Shown here: positions 31,146-47,335 of the stretch, piece after piece
Position numbering within the stretch: the stretch's first letter is position 1
Layout: every line of letters starts with the position of its first letter
Source: an uncultured virus (IMG/VR IMGVR_UViG_3300032677_000013)
Taxonomy: Duplodnaviria; Heunggongvirae; Uroviricota; Caudoviricetes
IMG/VR virus record: IMGVR_UViG_3300032677_000013
Length of the DNA stretch: 64,000 nt
Reading direction: 5' to 3' (one strand)
Notes under the pieces: generated by a model
The model's input: the letters and a program-made list of their open reading frames with translations, nothing else
What the model was told of the DNA's origin: nothing
Database searches by the model: none
Program-made: the position numbers and the translations under genes

Positions 31146-31733
31146 TCACGGCGCGGGCATCACATTGCCGTCGCCGTCACGGATCAGCGCGCCACATTTA
31201 ATACCAATGCTTACCAAACTATCACTCAGTTGGTCAACATCAGCCTGTGTTAGCGCGGGGCACTCATAGGCGATGATGGGCTGATCTGCCCGGCGGGCGG
31301 AACGCTCCCGCAAAGCAATCTTGCGAGCGAGATGGCGGCGGCGCGCCTCGTCATCATCCCGCCGCCAATCAGCGATAATCTCAAGGCATTCCGCAATCGT
31401 AGGAAACCATTTGAGCGAAGATGTGGCCCGATCGGCAAGGAAGCTAATGGCATCGCGGGGATGGCATCCAAGCTGGCGACGGTAGGCAGCGATGAACAGT
31501 TCCCCGCTCACATCGTCCAAATTGCGCTTGGGCACGCAGGCCAGCATGATCCGCAGGCATTGGTCAAAATGGCGGTCAGAGCATGGCAGCGGATCAGGGA
31601 GCGGGGAGAGCGAGATAGCCTCCACCCTCGCCAAAGTCGTGTCGTCCAAACGGGACGGAAGTGTCATCAAATCCAAGTCGTCGATCGAGGGCCTTAACTG
31701 CTCCATCGCGGCGGTCGATTGATGGTCGGTCAT
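31146..31733 (-). CDS. replication accessory protein (helicase loader/inhibitor-like position)
   Basis: KWFPTIAEC motif; follows initiator. Confidence 0.6.
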   Translation of the reverse strand: MTDHQSTAAMEQLRPSIDDLDLMTLPSRLDDTTLARVEAISLSPLPDPLPCSDRHFDQCLRIMLACVPKRNLDDVSGELFIAAYRRQLGCHPRDAISFLADRATSSLKWFPTIAECLEIIADWRRDDDEARRRHLARKIALRERSARRADQPIIAYECPALTQADVDQLSDSLVSIGIKCGALIRDGDGNVMPAP

Positions 31734-32310
31734 TTTTGGGTGTCCACTTGGTCGCGTTGTTGATCCACGTTCGGAAAGCAGCTTGCCAGTCTTTCGATGT
31801 GCGGCCCTTGTCGGCGGCGTGATCGGTGAAAGCGGCTAGCTCTTGCTCAAATCTGCCCGGTGGCCAGCCGTCAACGGTGCGCTGGGCGGCTGGTGTCAGG
31901 ATTGGCTGCCAGCCAGAAGGCAAAGAATGAGCAGGCTTCGCGCGCGTTGTTTTATCTATTGGTGGTTCTTGATGGTTAAGTGATGGTTTGGCTGACACTG
32001 TGTCAGGGGGGGGCGGACACTGTGTCAGGGGTTGTGTCGTCAATGTCAGGGGTGACACTGTGTCAGGGGTGACTTTGAAGACACTGGATGTCCCGTTGCG
32101 CTCCGTTATCTGAAGGAGATTGCGGGCCTTCAGATCATTGTATATCCGGCGCACAGATCGTTCGGTGAGGCTGCACTTGCGCGCGATGGTGGAAGCCGAT
32201 GGCCAGCACTCACCATGATCGTTGGCAAAGTCACACAGGCACAGCATCACCATTTTGTCGGTGATGGGAATATCCAGTTCCCATGCAATGGACATGAGAC
32301 GGATGCTCAT
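31594..32310 (-). CDS. replication initiator, lambda-O-like with N-terminal HTH
   Basis: K.V.L.L.DFAND.G.CWPS..TIA, KDWQAAFRTW, internal iterons. Confidence 0.85.
   Translation of the reverse strand: MSIRLMSIAWELDIPITDKMVMLCLCDFANDHGECWPSASTIARKCSLTERSVRRIYNDLKARNLLQITERNGTSSVFKVTPDTVSPLTLTTQPLTQCPPPPDTVSAKPSLNHQEPPIDKTTRAKPAHSLPSGWQPILTPAAQRTVDGWPPGRFEQELAAFTDHAADKGRTSKDWQAAFRTWINNATKWTPKNDRPSIDRRDGAVKALDRRLGFDDTSVPFGRHDFGEGGGYLALPAP
31993..32070. repeat. replication origin iterons
   Basis: GACACTGTGTCAGGGG at 31994, 32016 and 32054, plus a degenerate copy near 32037. Confidence 0.85.
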
Positions 32311-34421: not shown

Positions 34422-34645
34422 ACGCGCCCCTCGCCATCACCAGCCCCCGCGAGCTTGAGAAGGCCGCTAACGACGCCATCACCGCCAAGCTTCGGTTTGA
34501 TGCCTATCAAGGCAATGATCGGGAATGGGATCGCCTTTGCCGTGAGAGCGACGAGGCGACTCTCGTGTTTCAGTCCACCCTTCACAGGGCTGGTATTAGC
34601 AAGGGCTTGATGGCCGCGCTTATCGGCAGCGGGGTGGTTGCATGA
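34418..34645 (+). CDS. hypothetical protein
   Basis: GTGA coupling. Confidence 0.6.
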   Translation: MNAPLAITSPRELEKAANDAITAKLRFDAYQGNDREWDRLCRESDEATLVFQSTLHRAGISKGLMAALIGSGVVA

Positions 34646-34772
34646 TCCGCCTCCGCTACATTCTCCTTGGGGCCGTCATCCTCGTGTTTTGGTCAGAGAC
34701 ATCGCCCGGCATCGAGGCCAAGCGCGCTGGGGTGCTGGTGGGTTTCCACCTGCCAGTTGCAGAGGTGCGGCC

Positions 34773-36260
34773 ATGAGTGGGCGCGTCATCTACCTGCCGT
34801 GGATCGAGCGTTCCATGCTGCAGGCAGACCCCGAGGCCCGCTTTGTGTTTGGCGACAATGCCGAACGCTGGGGCCTTGGCGGTCAGGCCAAGGAGATGCG
34901 CGGCGAGCCCAATGCCATTGGTGTGGCCACGCTCTGGTCGCCCGGGCAGTTTTACCCAGCCGGGGAAGTGGCTGCTGTGTGTGTTGTGCTGGACTTCTAC
35001 CCGCTCGAAAATGGAAATCGTTTCGCCAAGGTCACGATGCGCGGTCAGGTTGATCGCAGCGATGACAGGAAATGGGCTGCGGCCGAACTGACGGTTGATG
35101 TTGAACTGACGTTCCCGGCCTTTGTCACTGAGGTGATCCGCTGGGCTTGGGATGCGTGCAAGGCCGATGCGAGCGTCGAAGGAAATGTGACTAGCGGGAA
35201 ATACGCGACGAACGCCAGCAGCGGGGACTACGCGACGAACGCCAGCAGCGGGGACTACGCGACGAACGCCAGCAGCGGGGACTACGCGAAGAACGCCAGC
35301 AGCGGGGACTACGCGACGAACGCCAGCAGCGGGGACTACGCGAAGAACGCCAGCAGCGGGGACTCCGCGAAGAACGCCAGCAGCGGGAAATACGCGACGA
35401 ACGCCAGCAGCGGGGACTACGCGACGAACGCCAGCAGCGGGCAATCCGCGAAGAACGCCAGCAGCGGGCAATCCGCGACGAACGCCAGCAGCGGGAAATA
35501 CGCGACGAACGCCAGCAGCGGGGAATCCGCGACGAACGCCAGCAGCGGGGACTACGCGAAGAACGCCAGCAGCGGGCAATCCGCGAAGAACGCCAGCAGC
35601 GGGCAATCCGCGACGAACGCCAGCAGCGGGGACTACGCGAAGAACGCCAGCAGCGGGGACTACGCGAAGAACGCCAGCAGCGGGGACTACGCGAAGAACG
35701 CCAGCAGCGGGGACTACGCGAAGAACGCCAGCAGCGGGGACTACGCGACGAACGCCAGCAGCGGGGACTACGCGAAGAACGCCAGCAGCGGGGACTACGC
35801 GAAGAACGCCAGCAGCGGGGACTACGCGAAGAACGCCAGCAGCGGGGACTCCGCGACGAACGCCAGCAGCGGGGACTACGCGAAGAACGCCAGCAGCGGG
35901 GACTACGCGAAGAACGCCAGCAGCGGGGACTACGCGACGAACGCCAGCAGCGGGGACTACGCGAAGAACGCCAGCAGCGGGGACTCCGCGAAGAACGCCA
36001 GCAGCGGGGACTACGCGAAGAACGCCAGCAGCGGGGACTCCGCCTATAATGAGGCCACGGGCCAGCATTCCGTGATCAGCGGGGCAGGGCGCGGCACCCA
36101 ATACAAGGGCGCTGTCGGCGTGTGGATTTCCGCCGCTGAATATGCCCAGATTGACGGCGTATGGCGATGCATTGGCTTCGCCACCGGGCAGGCTGGGCAT
36201 GATGGTGTCCCCGCTGACACATGGTTGATCGCCCATGGCGGCAAGATGGTGCCAGCATGA
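34773..36260 (+). CDS. fusion: FVFGDN..GGQA (DUF7831/A1S_2505-like) fragment plus DUF7666-like NASSGDYA-repeat protein
   Basis: RBS GAGG; two recognisable part-domains followed by 31 nonapeptide repeats. Confidence 0.75.
   Translation: MSGRVIYLPWIERSMLQADPEARFVFGDNAERWGLGGQAKEMRGEPNAIGVATLWSPGQFYPAGEVAAVCVVLDFYPLENGNRFAKVTMRGQVDRSDDRKWAAAELTVDVELTFPAFVTEVIRWAWDACKADASVEGNVTSGKYATNASSGDYATNASSGDYATNASSGDYAKNASSGDYATNASSGDYAKNASSGDSAKNASSGKYATNASSGDYATNASSGQSAKNASSGQSATNASSGKYATNASSGESATNASSGDYAKNASSGQSAKNASSGQSATNASSGDYAKNASSGDYAKNASSGDYAKNASSGDYAKNASSGDYATNASSGDYAKNASSGDYAKNASSGDYAKNASSGDSATNASSGDYAKNASSGDYAKNASSGDYATNASSGDYAKNASSGDSAKNASSGDYAKNASSGDSAYNEATGQHSVISGAGRGTQYKGAVGVWISAAEYAQIDGVWRCIGFATGQAGHDGVPADTWLIAHGGKMVPA
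35211..36047 (+). repeat. 31 x 27-bp coding tandem repeat
   Basis: AACGCCAGCAGCGGG(GAC/AAA/CAA/GAA)(TAC/TCC)GCG(AAG/ACG); last unit ends GCCTAT. Confidence 0.97.
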
Positions 36261-36481
36261 CTGGCTCCAAAACACACCGTGGCTGGACGATTGATTATGA
36301 CCCCAAGCCCGTCCCTGATCGCAGTTGGGATTGGACAGCCGCCGCGCCGGATTTTGATGTTGATTTTCAAGATGGGCGCTGGGTTACATCTGGCGGTCAT
36401 GTAAATGCCGCCACCTATGACGATCTAATTGCACAGATTGACGCATATGAATTGGAAAGGGATGACAATGCAAAAGTTTAA
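36257..36481 (+). CDS. hypothetical protein
   Basis: ATGA coupling; W.I.YDPKP.P.R..DW. Confidence 0.7.
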   Translation: MTGSKTHRGWTIDYDPKPVPDRSWDWTAAAPDFDVDFQDGRWVTSGGHVNAATYDDLIAQIDAYELERDDNAKV

Positions 36482-36946: not shown

Positions 36947-37605
36947 TGCTAAACCACAATAACCCGCCGCCCCTTGATGCGCTATCAATGCACATTGAGG
37001 ATTTGCTTTCGCTTGCATCCGGCACTCTGGCCGGGGGTGAGATTACCAACGATGAGCAAGAAACCGCCGTCTCGGGATTGCTGGATGAAATGCGCCAAGC
37101 CCGCAAGGATGCCGATGCACAGCGCGCCCTTGAAAAGAAACCGCACCTTGATGCTGGCAAGGCCATAGACGCCGCATGGAAGCCTGTTATTGATCGGGCG
37201 GCTTATGGTGAAGGGGCGCTTAAAGACGCCCTGACGCCCTATAGGACGGCCAAGCAGCGCGCTAAAGACGAAGCTGCCCGCAAGGCCCGCGAGGATGCTG
37301 AAGCCGCCCAGAAGGCCGCACAGGAAGCCCTGAAGGCATCGGACGATCTGGAGGCTAAGTTTGCGGCGGAACTGGAACTAGAACGCGCCGCCAAGCTGAC
37401 CGCACAGGCCAACCGAATTGACAAGTCCGCCACGGGGCTTCGCACATACCAGATTGCGGAAGTGATCGACGCGAAGGCGCTGCTACAGCACGTTATGCGG
37501 AATGATCCCTTGGCGCTGAAAGATTGGCTGGCGGATTATGCCCGCAAGGCCCTGCCAGCGCAGTTGCCGGGTGTTGAGATTAAGATTGAAAAGAGGGCGG
37601 CATGA
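36946..37605 (+). CDS. coiled-coil protein, possibly Gam-like/recombination accessory
   Basis: HNNPP start, EKKPHL, GLRT, LPGV motif. Confidence 0.65.
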   Translation: MLNHNNPPPLDALSMHIEDLLSLASGTLAGGEITNDEQETAVSGLLDEMRQARKDADAQRALEKKPHLDAGKAIDAAWKPVIDRAAYGEGALKDALTPYRTAKQRAKDEAARKAREDAEAAQKAAQEALKASDDLEAKFAAELELERAAKLTAQANRIDKSATGLRTYQIAEVIDAKALLQHVMRNDPLALKDWLADYARKALPAQLPGVEIKIEKRAA

Positions 37606-37832
37606 TAATTATTGAAGGGTTGACCGATAACGAATTGTTGCAAAAGTTGCGTGAAGATATTTCCGCTGAATCAAGTGCCGCTGCTTGGGGAAGGCTCCAT
37701 GGCGTTTCTGAAACGCTGATTAGCCTTACATTGTCTGGTCAACGTAGCATTAGTGAAAAAATATCTCACGCACTAGGATATGAAAAAAAATCCGTATGGA
37801 CCCCTTTACATTTCCGCAATGGTGGCGCATAA
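37602..37832 (+). CDS. small HTH protein
   Basis: S.AAW...HGVS...IS..L.G.R..S..I..ALG. Confidence 0.75.
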   Translation: MIIIEGLTDNELLQKLREDISAESSAAAWGRLHGVSETLISLTLSGQRSISEKISHALGYEKKSVWTPLHFRNGGA

Positions 37833-37835
37833 AAG

Positions 37836-38263
37836 TGAGGCGGAAAGCACTCGACCTGCCATCCGCCTCGCCTGCCTTCTTACAGGTTTTGGCAAGCATT
37901 CGCAACCCGGTTATGCGCGTTGGCGCTTTCTCCGAGGGTCGAGCTAAAAAAGCTGCCTTGGATGAAGGGTGCGATCCGACATTTCGCGGAAAAACCCAAA
38001 TCCACAAAGAGCGTCGTTTTCTCTCAAGAAACAGATACTATGGAAGTCGACACCCGCTTCCCCTGACGCCTAGCTGGATGGCCAAGGGATACCTGCACCA
38101 AACGTCACATTTGTTATTAGGCGACCACAGCCGAGAGAAATCAAAATGGTGGGGACCACGATTGGCCCGCGTTAAGGGCAGTGCAGTAAACATAGTAGAG
38201 TGTGCCGGTAAGGAATACCCGATTCACTTTAGCAGTGACCTTCGCGGGTGGACGTGCTTTGCC
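37836..38263 (+). ncRNA. candidate large structured RNA
   Basis: more than 10 complementary segment pairs including crossing pairs; see findings. Confidence 0.5.
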
Positions 38264-38283
38264 ATAATGATAGGATGACAACC

Positions 38284-38886
38284 ATGACTGACAACACAAC
38301 CCCACTATATGAGGCAATGGCATTGGCCTTTGCAGAGATTGAAGGGGCAATCAAAGATACAACGAATCCGCACTTCAAGGCGAAATATGCGGATCTTTCC
38401 AGCGTGGTATCTGCCATTAAACCGGCACTGGCCAAAAATGGCCTTTGGTTCCGGCAAGTGATGCACGAGCGGGATAAAGGGGTTTGTGTGGAGACTATCG
38501 TTTGCCATAAGTCCGGCCACGAACTGACTTTTGGCAGCTTGTTTGTGCCAGCCAAAAATAATGACGCGCAAGGCTTCGGATCGGCACTCACATACGCGAG
38601 GCGTTATTCCCTGATGACGGCATTTGGCGTTTGCCCAGAAGATGATGACGGCAATCGTGCAGTGGAATCGCAACGCGCACCAGACCCCGCCCCGGAATTG
38701 ATTACCGAAGATCAGCGCATCGAATTGATGGCGCTGTTTGAAAGCCTAAACGTGCCGGTTGCCGAGTTTCTCAAAGCAGCGGGCGGGATTAAGGATTTGC
38801 GCCAGTTAGAGGCCAGCCGGTTTGACGGCGCAAAAACATGGATCAACAAGCGCGCTAAGGAATACGCGAAACAGGAGCAAAACTAA
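38284..38886 (+). CDS. erf: ERF-family ssDNA annealing protein
   Basis: NPHFKAKYADL, QGFGSALTYARRYSL, EDDDGN. Confidence 0.95.
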   Translation: MTDNTTPLYEAMALAFAEIEGAIKDTTNPHFKAKYADLSSVVSAIKPALAKNGLWFRQVMHERDKGVCVETIVCHKSGHELTFGSLFVPAKNNDAQGFGSALTYARRYSLMTAFGVCPEDDDGNRAVESQRAPDPAPELITEDQRIELMALFESLNVPVAEFLKAAGGIKDLRQLEASRFDGAKTWINKRAKEYAKQEQN

Positions 38887-39278
38887 TGCAGGTGATGACA
38901 ATTTGTGGAAAGTTGGGGCGGGATGCCGAACTTCGCAGCACTAACAGCGGCAATCAGGTTTGCAGTTTTTCCGTTGCCGTGGATCAGCGCAACGAGCGCG
39001 ACAAGACGACGAACTGGTATCGCGTCAGCATCTGGGGCAAGCGTGGCGAAGTGCTGCAACAGTATCTCACCAAGGGCTCTGCCGTTACCGTGGTCGGGGA
39101 GTTTTCCGTCAGCGAATATGAGGGCAAAACGCAGCTTAATATCCGAGCCAGCGAGATTGCTTTGCAGGGCGGGCGGAACGATGATCGGCGCGAATCAGAT
39201 GGCAATCAAAGCGCCCCCGTCCAGACAAAGCCAGTGACTAGCTTTGCGGATGATCTTTCGGACGATATTCCTTTTTAA
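38886..39278 (+). CDS. ssb: single-stranded DNA-binding protein
   Basis: GKLGRDAELR, TNWYRVSIWGKR, DDIPF. Confidence 0.95.
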   Translation: MQVMTICGKLGRDAELRSTNSGNQVCSFSVAVDQRNERDKTTNWYRVSIWGKRGEVLQQYLTKGSAVTVVGEFSVSEYEGKTQLNIRASEIALQGGRNDDRRESDGNQSAPVQTKPVTSFADDLSDDIPF

Positions 39279-39409: not shown

Positions 39410-39640
39410 ATGAAGATCAAGTTTAACGTGGATAAAGATAGCGGCGAAGCAGATTGGCACCCGGAAACGCTTGCCAAGCTGATGAGTTACAGCCCGCTTT
39501 GGCGAGTAGACGTTCTCGGTGATGTAGTGGCAATGGCCACGCAACTATTTGAGCAAGCTACGGCTGAAATGCTTATGGAATTTGAAGGGATTCAAAATGC
39601 TGCCACCGAAGAAGATGAAGAAGGCGAAGCGATCCACTAG
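39410..39640 (+). CDS. acidic hypothetical protein
   Basis: RBS GGAGG. Confidence 0.6.
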   Translation: MKIKFNVDKDSGEADWHPETLAKLMSYSPLWRVDVLGDVVAMATQLFEQATAEMLMEFEGIQNAATEEDEEGEAIH

Positions 39641-39944
39641 ATGGCGGTCGCAAGGCCATTGTAATTTTGTCCGGTCTCATCATTGCTCGATTGATGGATG
39701 CATGGAATTGCCGATTCAGGTCGCACATGTGAGGTTGGGCAGCGGCGCTGGGATGGGAGAAAAGCCAGATGATTTTCGCTCAGTGGCACTCTGTGCGGGA
39801 CATCATCGCAAACAGCACGAAATAGGCGAACGCACGTTTTGGGCTGGCATTGATGTTGAAGGGCTGATTGAAGCCTTTTGCAAAGCCAGCCCGAAAGCTG
39901 CCGAGATCAAGGCGGTGAAGGCGGAAAGGAATGGCCATGTCTGA
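39597..39944 (+). CDS. DUF968-like/HNH-related Zn-binding protein
   Basis: AHVR.G..GMG.KPDD...LC..HH..QH..GE; homologue of 2575-2925. Confidence 0.8.
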   Translation: MLPPKKMKKAKRSTRWRSQGHCNFVRSHHCSIDGCMELPIQVAHVRLGSGAGMGEKPDDFRSVALCAGHHRKQHEIGERTFWAGIDVEGLIEAFCKASPKAAEIKAVKAERNGHV

Positions 39945-40383
39945 CAAGCCAAGCCTGATGTTTGAGGTGCGCTTTGGCAGCCTTCACCCTATTAATTCAG
40001 CCGCACGGGAGGCGGTGAATTCCATCCCCCCCGGCCCGGTTAGGGTTGAGATTAAGCGCACCAGAGCAAACGAGGCTCGGCGGGGATTTTATTGGTTAAT
40101 GTTAGATGTGGCGTCTGAAGCCCTAACGGACGCCACGGGCTTTGTCTGGGATCAGGAACTGTTGCACAATGAACTAAAGCGCCACCTAAGCCTTGGGGAG
40201 CGGTTTACAACGCCATCAGGGCATGAGGTGTTCAAGCCCCGATCTACCAGCAACATGGCGATGACAGAGCATGAGCGGGCACGTTGGACGGATAGATGCG
40301 CCAATTTCTTGAGCCACTGGCTAGGATGTGAAATTACCGAGCTAATGGATGAGGCTCGACGTAGGAATGGAGATGTGGGATGA
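39931..40383 (+). CDS. NinB/DUF1367-like protein
   Basis: R.N....YW, LH..LK, PRSTS..M motif. Confidence 0.6.
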   Translation: MAMSDKPSLMFEVRFGSLHPINSAAREAVNSIPPGPVRVEIKRTRANEARRGFYWLMLDVASEALTDATGFVWDQELLHNELKRHLSLGERFTTPSGHEVFKPRSTSNMAMTEHERARWTDRCANFLSHWLGCEITELMDEARRRNGDVG

Positions 40384-41753
40384 ATGCGGTATCTCTACCT
40401 TTAACCGTATCTGATTTAATAGATGAATATGCCGGAAAAGACGCTGCCATAGATGGTGCGATTGCCGATTTTAAAGCCGCATATGATCGGCTGGGGATGG
40501 CCGTAACTGTCAACGGCACCTACGCAGAAAACGTCATAACCGCACCTAATCTTTATCGAGACAGCCTGCGGCGGAATTTGTTAAAGTCGGGCTGGAAGGC
40601 GGTTTATAATCGCCTGCAAATTGATGCTTTGGCCAGTGCCAATGATAAAAAGCTATTTGAGCGGGCGCTGGCTGATCCAGCCCCTCTTACGCTAGATAAT
40701 GCCAAGGCAACATTTGGCGATTATATCGTGCGTCCGCGCTTCCATATTCTGCGCGGGTTGGCCGAGGTGTTCACCCAGATTGACCCCGCTTACAAATCGC
40801 ACAGCAAGGTTCGCATCGGCGTGAAAGGCCTGCCCAAGCGGGTGATCTTGAACGGCTGGAGTGAATACAGCTACGGCACTGCCCGCGACCGATTCCGCGA
40901 TATGGTCAACGCGATGGCTGCTTTGCGCGAACAGCCGCCCTATGAGCACCGGGAAATGACGGCGATTAATCTTGCCCACCAGCAAGGCAAGGATGCCATA
41001 CTTGATGGCCGCAGTTATTTTGAGATTGATCGCTATAACCCGGAAAAGCGCAAAGCCTTTGCAACCATTAATCGCGGCTTGACAGTTCGCCGGTTCAGCA
41101 ATGGCAACGCGCATGTGTTCTTCGACAAGTGGGCGCTTCTCGACATCAACCGGGCGCTGGCTGAGTTCTATGGCGAAGTGCTGCCAGACGTTGATCCTGA
41201 AGACGCCAAGCACCAGCCGGGAACCGCCGTGTCAAAGGATCTGCAATTCTATTGGTCGCCCCCTGAAGTTGTGGCGCTTGCTTTGCAATTTGCCGACATT
41301 TACACTCGCGAACAATGTGGCATCAGGGCGTGGGAAGAGCGGAAACCGCTTCGTGTATTGGAGCCATCATGCGGGGATGGCCGTATCTTAGATGAACTGC
41401 GGGCACGTGGCTGCAAGGCATTGGGCATGGAATACCATCCGGGCCGAGCAGCGGAGGCAAGGGCCAAAGGTCATGCCGTTATGACTTGCAATTTCTTAGA
41501 CCAGCCAGCCACTAAAGATTTTGATGCGGTGGTGATGAATCCACCATTTTATGGGTTACACTATGTTAAGCACGTTCTCCACGCGGTCGGATTCCTAAAG
41601 CCCGGCGGAATGCTAGTGGCGATCCTGCCCGCCACTGCGCGTTATGACCATCATGACTTAAAAGGCGAATGGCGCGATTTGCCGGTAGCTAGTTTTGCCG
41701 ATGCAGGAACAAACGTGCCGACCACTATGTTAAAAATTAGGAGGCCAACATAA
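40380..41753 (+). CDS. DUF4942-like domain plus N6-adenine DNA methyltransferase
   Basis: F.NGN.H..F, VLEPSCGDG, VVMNPPF. Confidence 0.85.
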   Translation: MNAVSLPLTVSDLIDEYAGKDAAIDGAIADFKAAYDRLGMAVTVNGTYAENVITAPNLYRDSLRRNLLKSGWKAVYNRLQIDALASANDKKLFERALADPAPLTLDNAKATFGDYIVRPRFHILRGLAEVFTQIDPAYKSHSKVRIGVKGLPKRVILNGWSEYSYGTARDRFRDMVNAMAALREQPPYEHREMTAINLAHQQGKDAILDGRSYFEIDRYNPEKRKAFATINRGLTVRRFSNGNAHVFFDKWALLDINRALAEFYGEVLPDVDPEDAKHQPGTAVSKDLQFYWSPPEVVALALQFADIYTREQCGIRAWEERKPLRVLEPSCGDGRILDELRARGCKALGMEYHPGRAAEARAKGHAVMTCNFLDQPATKDFDAVVMNPPFYGLHYVKHVLHAVGFLKPGGMLVAILPATARYDHHDLKGEWRDLPVASFADAGTNVPTTMLKIRRPT

Positions 41754-44990: not shown

Positions 44991-45533
44991 ATGACTGATA
45001 CGCCCCCAGCCGTCGTGGTGCCCATGATTGACGCCGATAGGCCGGGAATAGGAAGTGACCCCCAAGTGATCCCGCAATTTACCTTGCAGCCAGAAATGGG
45101 GACGGACGGGCGCGAGATTAGGCTCGGGGTAATTGATAATGCCGAGTTCGACCGCGATGAAAAAGACTGGGCGGTCAAATATGCTATTACAACCGATAAA
45201 CTAATATCCTCGCTGCGGCTTTCCTATGGTCATGATCTGGCTGTAGAAGTGCCCGCAAACATACACTTTGGACGTTATTTCAATCTTGGCTTGGATGTGC
45301 AATGGCAGAGAAATACGCCAATGACATATGCCGCCGAGTTTAACATAACGCCCACAAACCGGCTAACTGTTACACCGACGCTATATAGAGACAATAAAAC
45401 AAGAGCCGCCATCTTTTTTGCATGGATTCCACCGGGCCATAACAACATACAGTTAGACGCTGGTTACGATAACCCAAAAATAACGGTGGGCATTTCAACT
45501 GCAATCAGTTTTGCAAAAGAATTGAATAAATGA
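44991..45533 (+). CDS. beta-strand protein resembling a shortened MetA-pathway-type outer-membrane barrel
   Basis: DRPG.G..P.V.P...Q.E.G start, QLD.G near end, amphipathic strands. Confidence 0.45.
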   Translation: MTDTPPAVVVPMIDADRPGIGSDPQVIPQFTLQPEMGTDGREIRLGVIDNAEFDRDEKDWAVKYAITTDKLISSLRLSYGHDLAVEVPANIHFGRYFNLGLDVQWQRNTPMTYAAEFNITPTNRLTVTPTLYRDNKTRAAIFFAWIPPGHNNIQLDAGYDNPKITVGISTAISFAKELNK

Positions 45534-47335
45534 GCCTCATCCCAAACATTTTGCACTTTATATGGTTTACAGGCCCAAAATCCCGGGACTTTGCATTTAT
45601 CAACTATCTGGCAGTCAGAGCCGCGTATGATGTGCAAAAGCCAGACGTCATTTATATGCACACCAATGCAGAGCCTGTAGGCAACCCTCATTGGGACGCC
45701 ATTCGTCCTTACGTTACAATGGTGCAAACGGAACCGCCAGCCATTTCAGAATACCCGCAGTATCAGGCGGACATCGTGCGGTTAGATGTGCTTTATGATC
45801 AGGGGGGAATATACCTTGATACGGATATGCTGCTAATTAAGCCCCTATCCTTCCAGAGAACCACAATGGGGGTGGAAAGCTATAATGAAGATGGCTCGCC
45901 CAAGTCTTTAAACGCGGGATTGATTGTGGCAAAGCTGGGATGCCCGTTCATTGGCCGATGGAAGCGGGAAATGCTAGGGGTTATAGGCACTGGGGAATGG
46001 TCATCGCATTGCGTGACACTGGCAGCGGAAATCTATGAGCAAAACCCGACACTAATTGATTTAAGGCCTGCCGAGGAGTTTCTGCCATTCGATTTTAATG
46101 ATGAATGGATTTATGGGAATATATCGGGGGAAGAGCGGCTGCTCAATTCCTATTCGGTCCATATGTATGACACCTACTGGGAAGGTGTTGAGTGGAGCGA
46201 ATTGCGCAAGGTTAACAACAATTATCTGAAAAATGAGCGCAATCTATTTACACACTTATTTGGGAAATACTCGATGACCAAAAAGCTAAAAATATGCGTC
46301 TATGCTATCAGCAAAAACGAAGAGTTGTTTGTGGAGCGGTTTTGCACCGCTGCTAAAGACGCCGATATGATTGTTATTGCAGACACTGGAAGCACTGACA
46401 AAACAATTAAATTGGCAGATCAATGTGGGGCTATTGTTCACGAAATTTGCATCACTCCTTGGCGGTTTGATGATGCGCGCAATGCCGCAATAGCATTGCT
46501 TCCCCGCGATATTGACGTTTGTGTCAGCCTTGATCTTGACGAGGAATTGCAGTCGGGATGGCGAGAAGAAATTGAGCGCGTTTGGGTGGAGGGCACAACT
46601 CGTTTAAGGTATGGCTTCGACTGGGGAGCAGGCATCAAGTTCTCTTACGAGAAGATTCACGCCCGACATGGTTATAGATGGCTTCACCCCTGCCATGAAT
46701 ATCCCGTCCCCTATGGCATAAATGAACAATACGCCCATACCGATATGCTTTTGGTAATCCACAAGCCCGACCCCACCAAAAGCCGTGGGCAATATTTGCC
46801 CCTTTTGGAAATGTCGATCAGGGAAGATCCGCATGATCCCCGCAATGCTTTTTATTATGCCCGTGAATTGTCGTTCCATAGCCATTGGCAACAGGCCATT
46901 GATGAATGCAACCGCTATCTAAACCTGCCCGGTGCCAATTGGGCTAATGAGCGCTGCTATGCCTATCGAGTAATGTCTCGATGCTATGCGGAATTGGGAG
47001 ATTGGGAAGGCGCTATGAGGGCCGCGCGCATGGGTGTTATTGAGGCACCATATACCCGAGAGCCTTGGTGCGAAATTGCAAAACTAACTTATCAAAGGCA
47101 CCAGTGGGCGGAATGCTATGGGGCCGCTATGTCAGCCATTGCCATTGAACAGCGCGAATGGGTTTATACGGTGGACCCTGAAGTTTGGGGCTCGATGCCC
47201 CATGATTATGCCAGCATCGCAGCTTGGAACCTTGGCATGAAAGAAGATGCGATAAGGCAAGCCAAATTGGCCCTAGAGCATAATCCTAACGATAGCCGGA
47301 TTCTTTCTAATCTGGCTCATTACCAAGCGGGATAA
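45530..47335 (+). CDS. fused glycosyltransferase GT32 + GT2 + TPR
   Basis: IPNILHFIW, AD.VR..L...GGIYLDTD; then ICVYAISKNE, DTGSTD, FDDARN, SLDLDE; FYYAREL TPR region. Confidence 0.9.
   Translation: MSLIPNILHFIWFTGPKSRDFAFINYLAVRAAYDVQKPDVIYMHTNAEPVGNPHWDAIRPYVTMVQTEPPAISEYPQYQADIVRLDVLYDQGGIYLDTDMLLIKPLSFQRTTMGVESYNEDGSPKSLNAGLIVAKLGCPFIGRWKREMLGVIGTGEWSSHCVTLAAEIYEQNPTLIDLRPAEEFLPFDFNDEWIYGNISGEERLLNSYSVHMYDTYWEGVEWSELRKVNNNYLKNERNLFTHLFGKYSMTKKLKICVYAISKNEELFVERFCTAAKDADMIVIADTGSTDKTIKLADQCGAIVHEICITPWRFDDARNAAIALLPRDIDVCVSLDLDEELQSGWREEIERVWVEGTTRLRYGFDWGAGIKFSYEKIHARHGYRWLHPCHEYPVPYGINEQYAHTDMLLVIHKPDPTKSRGQYLPLLEMSIREDPHDPRNAFYYARELSFHSHWQQAIDECNRYLNLPGANWANERCYAYRVMSRCYAELGDWEGAMRAARMGVIEAPYTREPWCEIAKLTYQRHQWAECYGAAMSAIAIEQREWVYTVDPEVWGSMPHDYASIAAWNLGMKEDAIRQAKLALEHNPNDSRILSNLAHYQAG

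Follow-up and report, generated by a model that had tools for sequence, protein, structure and literature searches.

The element studied here lies at positions 37836–38263 of a 64,000-nt stretch of DNA from an uncultured virus of the Caudoviricetes (IMG/VR record IMGVR_UViG_3300032677_000013). The whole stretch is called the window below, and coordinates are window positions unless a relative is named. The element sits in the gap between a 76-aa open reading frame (ORF; 37602–37832, + strand) and erf (38284–38886, + strand), which encodes a single-stranded DNA-annealing protein (SSAP) and begins directly downstream with an ATG at 38284. An initial annotation, made from the letters of the window, had described the region as a candidate structured RNA between an HTH gene and erf. 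The assignment of erf was confirmed (Pfam ERF, 8.3e-26; PHROG 2324, 1.5e-39), whereas the HTH label of the upstream ORF is weak (PHROG 925, “HTH DNA binding protein”, E = 0.3). Five independent DNA relatives of the element were found: L047 on a contig of a metagenome-assembled genome, L051 in an IMG/VR provirus (with two near-identical copies in genome G415), L055 and L056 in IMG/VR, and L068 on the chromosome of genome G515. With the window, six sequences could be compared. Their homology supports the core of the initial observation and delimits a conserved structured non-coding RNA body on the + strand (37836–38263), the 3′ limit of which is the end of conservation (GUGCUUUGCC), while the 5′ limit is known only to within about 15 nt. 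Judged from these sequences, the element probably belongs to a family of large (approx. 410–450 nt) structured non-coding RNAs that had not been classified before and that occur in temperate phages and prophages of freshwater and Pseudomonadota hosts.

The coding capacity of the region was assessed by comparison with the relatives. A 160-codon ORF (37796–38278, + strand) starts at ATG 37796 and spans the element; counted from GTG 37835 it has 147 codons, and this shorter frame, without a ribosome-binding site, had already been seen in the initial annotation. No Pfam and no PHROG family matched the 160-codon ORF at E ≤ 1. On the DNA level, the window is 79% identical to L047 over 371 nt and 68% identical to L051 over 380 nt. 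Each of the two alignments contains six 1-nt indels and further length differences which are not multiples of three, and the ORF is kept in neither relative since its frame is broken. Mismatches at codon positions 1/2/3 amount to 24/24/26 of 118/119/119 for L047 and 37/41/36 of 119/121/120 for L051; an excess of third-position substitutions was found in neither comparison. A protein search with the window ORF returned five “relatives”, and a profile search of 1.84 billion representative proteins gave 31 at E ≤ 0.001, 13 at ≤ 1e-10 and 5 at ≤ 1e-30, counts which include the window’s own protein. The window DNA is matched in two frames by 7 of 34 such “proteins” and L047 in two or three frames by 13 of 34. 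The protein alignment consists of the same nucleotides in shifted frames, e.g., TRLCELALYPR versus NPVMRVGAFSE, or EKLPWV versus EKAALG. Since the matches fall into differing frames, the similarity lies at the nucleotide level and not at the protein level. A cluster look-up of 10 of the “proteins” yielded metagenome entries only. Broken frames, an even spread of mismatches and shifted-frame matches thus point to a spurious ORF, and by this comparison the 160-codon frame is an artefact of few stop codons.

Helices were derived from alignments of three, five and six sequences, by RNAalifold as well as by an exhaustive search for helices, and formed a consistent set. The resulting model contains 79 pairs in 16 helices, three of them crossing, and was counted on the six-sequence alignment (A11). 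Of its 471 cells, 93.4% are paired, compared to 81.9 ± 1.0% in shuffles, and both sides are changed in 37 of the 79 pairs, compared to 14.7 ± 2.7; none of 500 shuffles reached either value. Slid controls of the same model gave 36–45% paired cells and 2–10 pairs changed on both sides. The minimum free energy (MFE) of the single sequence is −146.6 kcal/mol on the + strand (z = −1.59; 6 of 100 shuffles fold as well), and the minus strand gave z = −2.04, with 3 of 100 shuffles folding as well. Thus, the comparison of folding energies with shuffled sequences, which the initial annotation had suggested as a check, is by itself not clearly special, while the comparison with the relatives lies far beyond chance. 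Another of its suggestions, weighing codon conservation against covariation, gave a frame that is not conserved, no codon bias and strong covariation. Together with the lack of an Rfam family (see below), these results agree with its main inference of an unclassified structured RNA.

All parts of the model described in the following are read on the + strand. The 5′ domain is closed by helix H-A (37850–55/37938–43), which pairs in five of the six sequences and is changed on both sides in five of six columns. Stem-loop b (37906–37937; CCCGG 37906–10/37932–37, inner GCGC 37915–18/GCGC 37923–26) is mostly invariant and shows little covariation; it is the most conserved part of the wider family and shows up in the spurious proteins as the “NPVMRVGAFSE” patch. 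The invariant linker AAAAAGCUGCCUUGG (37945–37960) is identical in all six sequences except for the A run. Helix c (37959–38004; UGGA 37959–62/UCCA 38001–04) surrounds a variable insert and has all of its cells paired, with one pair changed on both sides. A long-range helix (37988–38263) joins GGAAAAA 37988–94 to the 3′-terminal CUUUGCC 38257–63, with 76% of cells paired and weak covariation; it reads GGCAAAG/CUUUGCC in L047 and is weakest in the window itself. Hairpin H-B (38014–19/38029–34) is changed on both sides in five of its six pairs.

In the 3′ domain, helix H-C (38036–42/38191–97) encloses a junction from which two hairpins and a long arm emanate. It is paired in 97.6% of cells, changed on both sides in 5 of 7 pairs, and contains an internal C-G/U.G/U-A series which fits the + strand only. 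Hairpin H-D (38043–46/38057–60) is fully paired with two pairs changed on both sides, and its loop, CACCCG 38051–56, forms pseudoknot 1 with CGGGUG 38245–50 (38051–38250; 100% paired, 3 of 6 pairs changed on both sides), which becomes UUUCCG/CGGAAA in L056 and GACCCG/CGGGUC in L055. Hairpin g (38061–38088; CCCU 38061–64/AGGG 38085–88, inner GCC 38068–70/GGC 38080–82) presents the loop GCUGG 38073–77, which pairs with CCGGU 38205–09 in pseudoknot 2 (38073–38209); this one is also 100% paired, with two pairs changed on both sides and G.U intermediates. The long arm h (38090–38188; UACCUGCAC 38090–98/GUGCAGUA 38181–88) reaches 97.9% paired cells, has two pairs changed on both sides and an internal U.G in four of six sequences, and its inner hairpin (GGC 38120–22/GCC 38130–32, GACCAC loop) is changed on both sides in all three pairs. 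A candidate pseudoknot 3 (38104–38239) connects GUCAC 38104–08 to GUGAC 38235–39; it is 100% paired with one pair changed on both sides and reads GCCAC/GUGGC in L056 and L068. A small hairpin before GUGAC (38224–38238) seems to be kept, as seen by eye only. The strongest helices of the model are H-A, H-B, H-C, pseudoknots 1 and 2, and arm h with its inner hairpin.

Compared with this model, the complementary segments listed in the initial annotation are all present in the window, at the coordinates given there. Four of the listed helices are kept in the relatives with compensatory changes (37850/37937, in five of six columns; 38036/38191; 38093/38181; 37837/37862), the last one, however, with a G.U signature of the minus strand. 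About half are specific to the window or not conserved, among them 37931/37956, 38019/38133, 38067/38118 and 38166/38239. The proposed closure of the element by 37844/38254 was also not retained, as the 3′ end CUUUGCC of the relatives pairs with GGCAAAG at 37988–94 instead. Similarly, 37964/38047 is not conserved, and CACCCG 38051–56 pairs with CGGGUG 38245–50 instead, with covariation. Crossing pairs are therefore a real property of the element, but they are mostly not the ones originally listed.

In the body helices, G.U cells outnumber A.C cells by 33 to 5, and by 13 to 2 at internal positions. This excess, together with the C-G/U.G/U-A series, assigns the body to a + strand RNA. The left end has the opposite signature, which had escaped the initial annotation. 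It forms a terminator-like stem-loop on the minus strand (37830–37869), with stems 37837–44/37862–69 and 37846–49/37857–60, an apical loop GGUCGAG and then ACUUUUAUG. The stem-loop lies exactly at the 5′ end of the + RNA; it has 13 bp and is rich in G.U on the minus strand, and the stems of the window measure 8 + 4 bp. Read on the + strand, its 66 cells comprise 44 Watson-Crick, 0 G.U and 14 A.C cells, the latter being 14 G.U on the minus strand. Folding energies (minus/plus strand, kcal/mol) are −21.4/−6.1 for L047 and L051, −26.0/−15.0 for L056, −19.9/−10.5 for L055 and −11.5/−2.3 for L068, and about equal for the window (−22.5/−22.0). Hence, the minus strand is favored in five of the six sequences. 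A U tract follows the hairpin on the minus strand in four of six sequences, and the hairpin was flagged by a scan as a minus-strand intrinsic terminator in L047, L051 and L055. The apical loop of this hairpin is complementary to the 5′ strand of H-A, the best-supported + strand helix; on the + strand, the 5′ strand of H-A coincides with the loop. Given the opposite strand signatures of body and left hairpin, two RNAs seem to be encoded, namely a long + RNA and a minus-strand transcript ending in the left stem-loop. The complement of H-B followed by CUCUUUG was likewise flagged as terminator-like on the minus strand in L047 (3112–3129) and L056 (1372–1389), and could provide a second minus-strand stop between the two domains.

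Promoter-like sites were searched on both strands. On the + strand, TTTACA-17-CATAAA (37805–37833) was read by eye and would place the start of the + RNA at about 37839–41; it is absent from the scan list because the last base of its −10 hexamer is not T. At this site, GGCGCAUAAA is common to the window and L055 in the same place. On the minus strand, a sigma-70-like site matching the consensus at 10 of 12 positions (TTGTCA-16-TATCAT, 38267–38294) lies just right of the element; the scan found two sites where 1.0 ± 1.0 were expected, and no comparable site was present in L047, L051, L055, L056 or L068. Within the element, a possible minus-strand promoter (TTGnnn overlapping CCGGGTTG, 17 nt, then TATTGA, TAAGAA or TAGTAC) was seen by eye in five sequences, but it is weak and unlisted by the scan, and we do not rely on it. 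As a separate observation, about 45 nt upstream of the element are common to L047 (2880–2925) and L051 (2730–2775) and read TTGCTGGAACGTTC...GCTAT.... By eye, GAAC-N7-GAAC/CAAC in this segment resembles the alphaproteobacterial LexA box, and GGAAC-N16-CTAT resembles ECF-sigma promoters.

The genomic position of the element was compared across the six loci, in all of which it is co-directional with the upstream gene. The window and L055 share the order exonuclease, small ORF, element, SSAP and single-stranded DNA-binding protein (SSB), the SSAP being Erf in the window and Rad52-like in L055, and the next gene starts within 20–40 nt of the end of the element. In L047 and L051, the element directly follows a lysis cassette (endolysin and Rz-like, labels by reading the translations) near a prophage end; in L051 the next co-directional ORF is unrelated and about 190 nt away. 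In L056, it follows a 355-aa, tail-fiber-like gene and the downstream genes converge. A tRNA gene (1675–1747; 61.9 bits) lies there on the opposite strand, about 70 nt outside the 5′ boundary of the element and downstream of the minus-strand stem-loop, which has no U tract in this relative. In L068, the element is located between a 260-aa gene and a GHKL-type ATPase-like ORF (label by reading the translation), with the next gene about 500 nt away. None of 46 other erf loci contained the element when searched with blastn and a covariance model of the 5′ domain. These varied slots and the negative erf loci argue for a self-contained unit which is not an accessory of erf; on this comparison of loci, the link to erf is incidental.

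No match to the element was found in phage GenBank records (blastn, 801-nt query) or in the PLSDB plasmids (435-nt query), and the nearest virus record available, G001, is without it. In whole-genome BLAST, 1 of 401 genomes from the class of genome G002 and 1 of 401 from its order contained the element, in both cases G002 itself. Within its family, 11 of 401 genomes gave hits at E ≤ 0.001, three of which are real (G002, G415 and G515) and eight short and chance-like; in the genus of G415, one of one genome was positive. G415 carries the L051-type element twice in near-identical form (L067 and L077), on an 18.7-kb contig (C1) and on contig C2 at 968616, which could reflect a duplicated prophage or an assembly duplicate. 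The window’s own copy is present in 24 DNA sequencing runs from freshwater and lake metagenomes, with no RNA run among those listed, and four partial copies from sequencing runs yielded nothing beyond pieces of this same phage and one difference seen in a single contig. Several further candidates were rejected. L048, L049 and L050 are weak protein-pattern matches that neither blastn nor the covariance model confirmed, and the nucleotide-pattern matches L052 (19 nt only) and L063 (17 nt only) are false. L057–L059 represent a real small gene, holin-like by reading of its translation, which fits the nucleotide pattern by chance. This gene is shared by three IMG/VR contigs, has an AGGAGG ribosome-binding site, and its DNA contains CCCGGTTA...AAAAGCTGCCTTGG; consequently, these motifs alone do not identify the RNA.

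Other explanations of the element were weighed against a + strand RNA of its own. The functional RNA could be encoded on the minus strand, as a moron-type gene with its promoter at the right end (38294–38267) and its terminator at the left end (37869–37830), in which case the signature of the + strand would mislead. The 10/12 site directly right of the element would then find its use, as would the left hairpin with its U tract in four of six sequences, three of them flagged by the tool; the slightly better folding energy of this strand (z = −2.04) and the terminator-like complement of H-B in L047 and L056 point the same way. However, the ratio of 33 G.U to 5 A.C in the body speaks for the other strand, and the C-G/U.G/U-A series in 38036–42/38191–97 and arm h would turn into A.C mismatches in three to four of six sequences. 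Further, the right-end promoter was not found in the other five loci, chance alone predicts one such site in the scan of the window, and the element is co-directional with the flanking genes in all six. We therefore regard a minus-strand gene as unlikely. A real, fast-evolving small basic protein of 160 (or 147) aa has hardly any probability left. In its favor, both the window and L055 keep the frame open, and many of the 31 database “proteins” at E ≤ 0.001 start at the same aligned position and are 141–167 aa long. Against this stand the frame-breaking indels, the lack of codon-position bias, the relatives matching in different frames, the absence of an ORF in L047 and L051, of a ribosome-binding site and of a protein family, and the compensatory changes including G.U intermediates.

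For the + strand, a long cis-acting leader (a riboswitch- or attenuator-like 5′ UTR) of the downstream recombination genes erf/SSAP and ssb would explain why the element ends 20–40 nt before the next gene in the recombination modules of the window and L055, and why no + strand terminator follows it. This fits poorly with the other loci, as the next co-directional ORF of L051 is unrelated and distant, downstream genes converge in L056, the next gene of L068 is remote, and the elements of L047 and L051 follow lysis cassettes. Moreover, the downstream genes differ where the module is shared (Erf versus Rad52-like), 46 other erf loci are devoid of the element, and no riboswitch family matched, which makes a leader rather improbable. 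The region had initially also been discussed as a structured replication origin. In a ColE1-like arrangement, the + RNA would be the pre-primer and the minus-strand stem-loop RNA the copy-control countertranscript; the geometry fits, in that a short antisense RNA would cover the 5′ end of a long structured RNA that lacks a 3′ terminator, and the copies of the window and L055 lie in replication/recombination modules. However, the window encodes a replication-initiation O-like protein (31594–32307, minus strand; PHROG 1032, 7e-23), transcribed divergently about 6 kb left of the element. This weakens the earlier statement that no initiator gene was visible and makes an origin at the element unnecessary. 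In addition, the copies of L047 and L051 are located behind lysis genes, close to a prophage end, and the compact multi-pseudoknot fold is unlike that of RNA II. A structured origin is thus not favored, and its ColE1-like version is very unlikely. The initial annotation had treated the part of the window with the O-like initiator as a separate phage.

Returning to a + strand structured RNA accompanied by a short minus-strand transcript, several points count against it. Only six independent DNA sequences are available, and since the helices were derived from the same six sequences in which they were counted, the statistics lean towards the model. The folding energy of the single sequence is not significant (z = −1.59). 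Helix H-A is not shown by L068 in the alignment, the strand signal of H-B is ambiguous, and the hairpins of two of the six sequences, L056 and L068, lack a U tract. No promoter has been established for the + RNA or for the short minus-strand RNA; the by-eye minus-strand candidates match 7–8 of 12 consensus positions, lack the conserved last T and do not appear in the scan list. The window has just one good promoter-like site and one terminator-like hairpin here, both belonging to the minus strand, which is the signature of a minus-strand gene. Moreover, the copies of the window and L055 stop immediately at the ribosome-binding site of the following gene, as would fit a leader.

Known RNA families were searched using cmscan with Rfam 15, with thresholds of E ≤ 10 for the window region and E ≤ 1 for the five relatives. 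Except for a chance 25-nt match to asX4 (E = 6.7), no family was found in the window region, and nothing was found inside the element in L047, L051, L055, L056 or L068. Specifically, neither the window nor the five relatives gave a covariance-model match to RNase P, tmRNA, GOLLD, ROOL, HEARO or riboswitches, and ARAGORN detected no tRNA or tmRNA in the window. The cmscan check proposed in the initial annotation is thus consistent with an unclassified RNA. The same annotation had noted a resemblance to group I introns. Size, long-range helices and pseudoknots are indeed similar, and the 38036/38191 helix is real. However, RF00028 did not match, and the segment following 38036–42 pairs downstream (38043–46/38057–60, with covariation) and not upstream as a P3′ strand would, so that the helix order does not fit P7-P3′-P8; splice-site evidence was not seen either. 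As initially stated, no coding sequence is interrupted: the element is intergenic, and the unrelated flanks in six loci show that there is no gene to be spliced. A group I intron was therefore rejected on model match, exon context and helix order. A resemblance to RNase P (a junction of two hairpins and a long arm; GGUAAAC) was discarded as well, as no model matched.

The element is closest in character to GOLLD and ROOL, which are large and intricately folded phage or prophage RNAs in variable slots without a constant protein partner. GOLLD and ROOL are often found near tRNA genes, and the element of L056 has one about 70 nt away. In contrast to them, the element shows no match to their sequence or structure models, occurs in different hosts and has an antisense stem-loop at its 5′ end. 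With about 430 nt it is also smaller than GOLLD and ROOL, which have about 580–800 nt. With respect to the putative countertranscript, IS10 RNA-OUT and pMV158 RNAII are short antisense RNAs of a single hairpin which doubles as the terminator and overlaps the 5′ end of the sense RNA. Their targets are transposase or Rep mRNAs, whereas the sense RNA here is a 430-nt structured non-coding RNA. In IncIα/IncB plasmids, antisense binding competes with pseudoknot formation (PMC8053102). As in the IncIα type, pairing occurs between a distal segment and the loop of the 5′ stem-loop (37850–55/37938–43, pairing in five of six sequences and covarying in five of six columns, with the 5′ strand in the apical loop), and a stem-loop with complementarity to this loop is encoded on the opposite strand, the countertranscript being putative here. 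Unlike the IncIα type, the element has no conserved downstream rep gene or leader peptide, no downstream gene at all being conserved across the loci; the target is itself a non-coding RNA, and its + strand stem is weakened by A.C mismatches. Further, more than 10,000 candidate structured RNAs with a mean length of 67 nt were reported from IMG/VR (PMC10690425). Three IMG/VR sample numbers of the loci are absent from six of its supplementary files, and the family could be listed in three others. Apart from this catalogue, which was covered in part, no description of this RNA was found in the literature searched.

Based on these comparisons, a model can be proposed for the function of the locus. 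The + RNA, co-directional with the flanking phage genes, folds into a 5′ domain closed by 37850–55/37938–43 and a 3′ domain, in which 38036–42/38191–97 closes the junction of two hairpins and the long arm, and the loops of both hairpins pair with the 3′ tail in the pseudoknots 38051–56/38245–50 and 38073–77/38205–09. The A.C mismatches would leave the 5′ end of the + RNA weakly structured and thus free to form H-A with 37938–43. A short minus-strand transcript would end in the left stem-loop. Its apical loop corresponds in sense to the 3′ strand of H-A, so that the transcript would compete for the 5′ strand, and this competition may gate folding or stability of the + RNA or trigger its decay. 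Antisense gating by such a transcript, proposed by analogy to the plasmid systems, is a tentative suggestion, which we consider quite possible without expecting it. As for the folded + RNA, our best guess is that it acts in trans as a moron-like RNA of the phage, be it as a ribozyme, a protein-binding decoy or an RNA-only particle, and not as a leader of erf. A bolder reading, in which we place less confidence than in the gating, is that of a new class of large self-folding phage RNA of the rank of GOLLD and ROOL, possibly catalytic or cage-forming. It would be a protein-free “moron” of temperate phages with a folding nucleus gated by its own countertranscript of about 40–60 nt, and hence an RNA-only sense/antisense switch, perhaps serving as an anti-defense decoy or a development timer.

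Downstream of erf, the early genes of the window continue with SSB (38886–39278), an HNH endonuclease-like gene (39549–39944), a NinB/Orf-like recombination mediator (39931–40383; weak, E 1e-4) and a 457-aa DNA methyltransferase-like protein (40380–41753). The 601-aa ORF at 45530–47335 is a glycosyltransferase-like protein and not a terminase; its tblastn matches fall under beta-1,4-glycosyltransferase features in jumbo phages of Pseudomonas, Erwinia and Dickeya. A long tandem array of nonapeptide-like repeats (SGDYAKNAS and variants) occupies 34638–36275 and leaves ORFs of 540 aa and 539 aa open, one per strand.

Only a small number of large structured RNAs has been described from bacteria and phages, and each new class, such as RNase P, group I and II introns, GOLLD, ROOL or OLE, has opened new biochemistry. 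The family described here combines a compact fold, two or three pseudoknots and several invariant single-stranded motifs with an unusual built-in antisense stem-loop and no protein partner, and its members, at about 430 nt, are small enough to be studied by chemical probing, cryo-EM and genetics. Translations of this RNA account for at least 31 clusters of “hypothetical proteins”, which illustrates how such RNAs hide in databases. If antisense gating holds true, we know, from a limited literature search, of no earlier case in which a countertranscript controls a structured non-coding RNA and not an mRNA.

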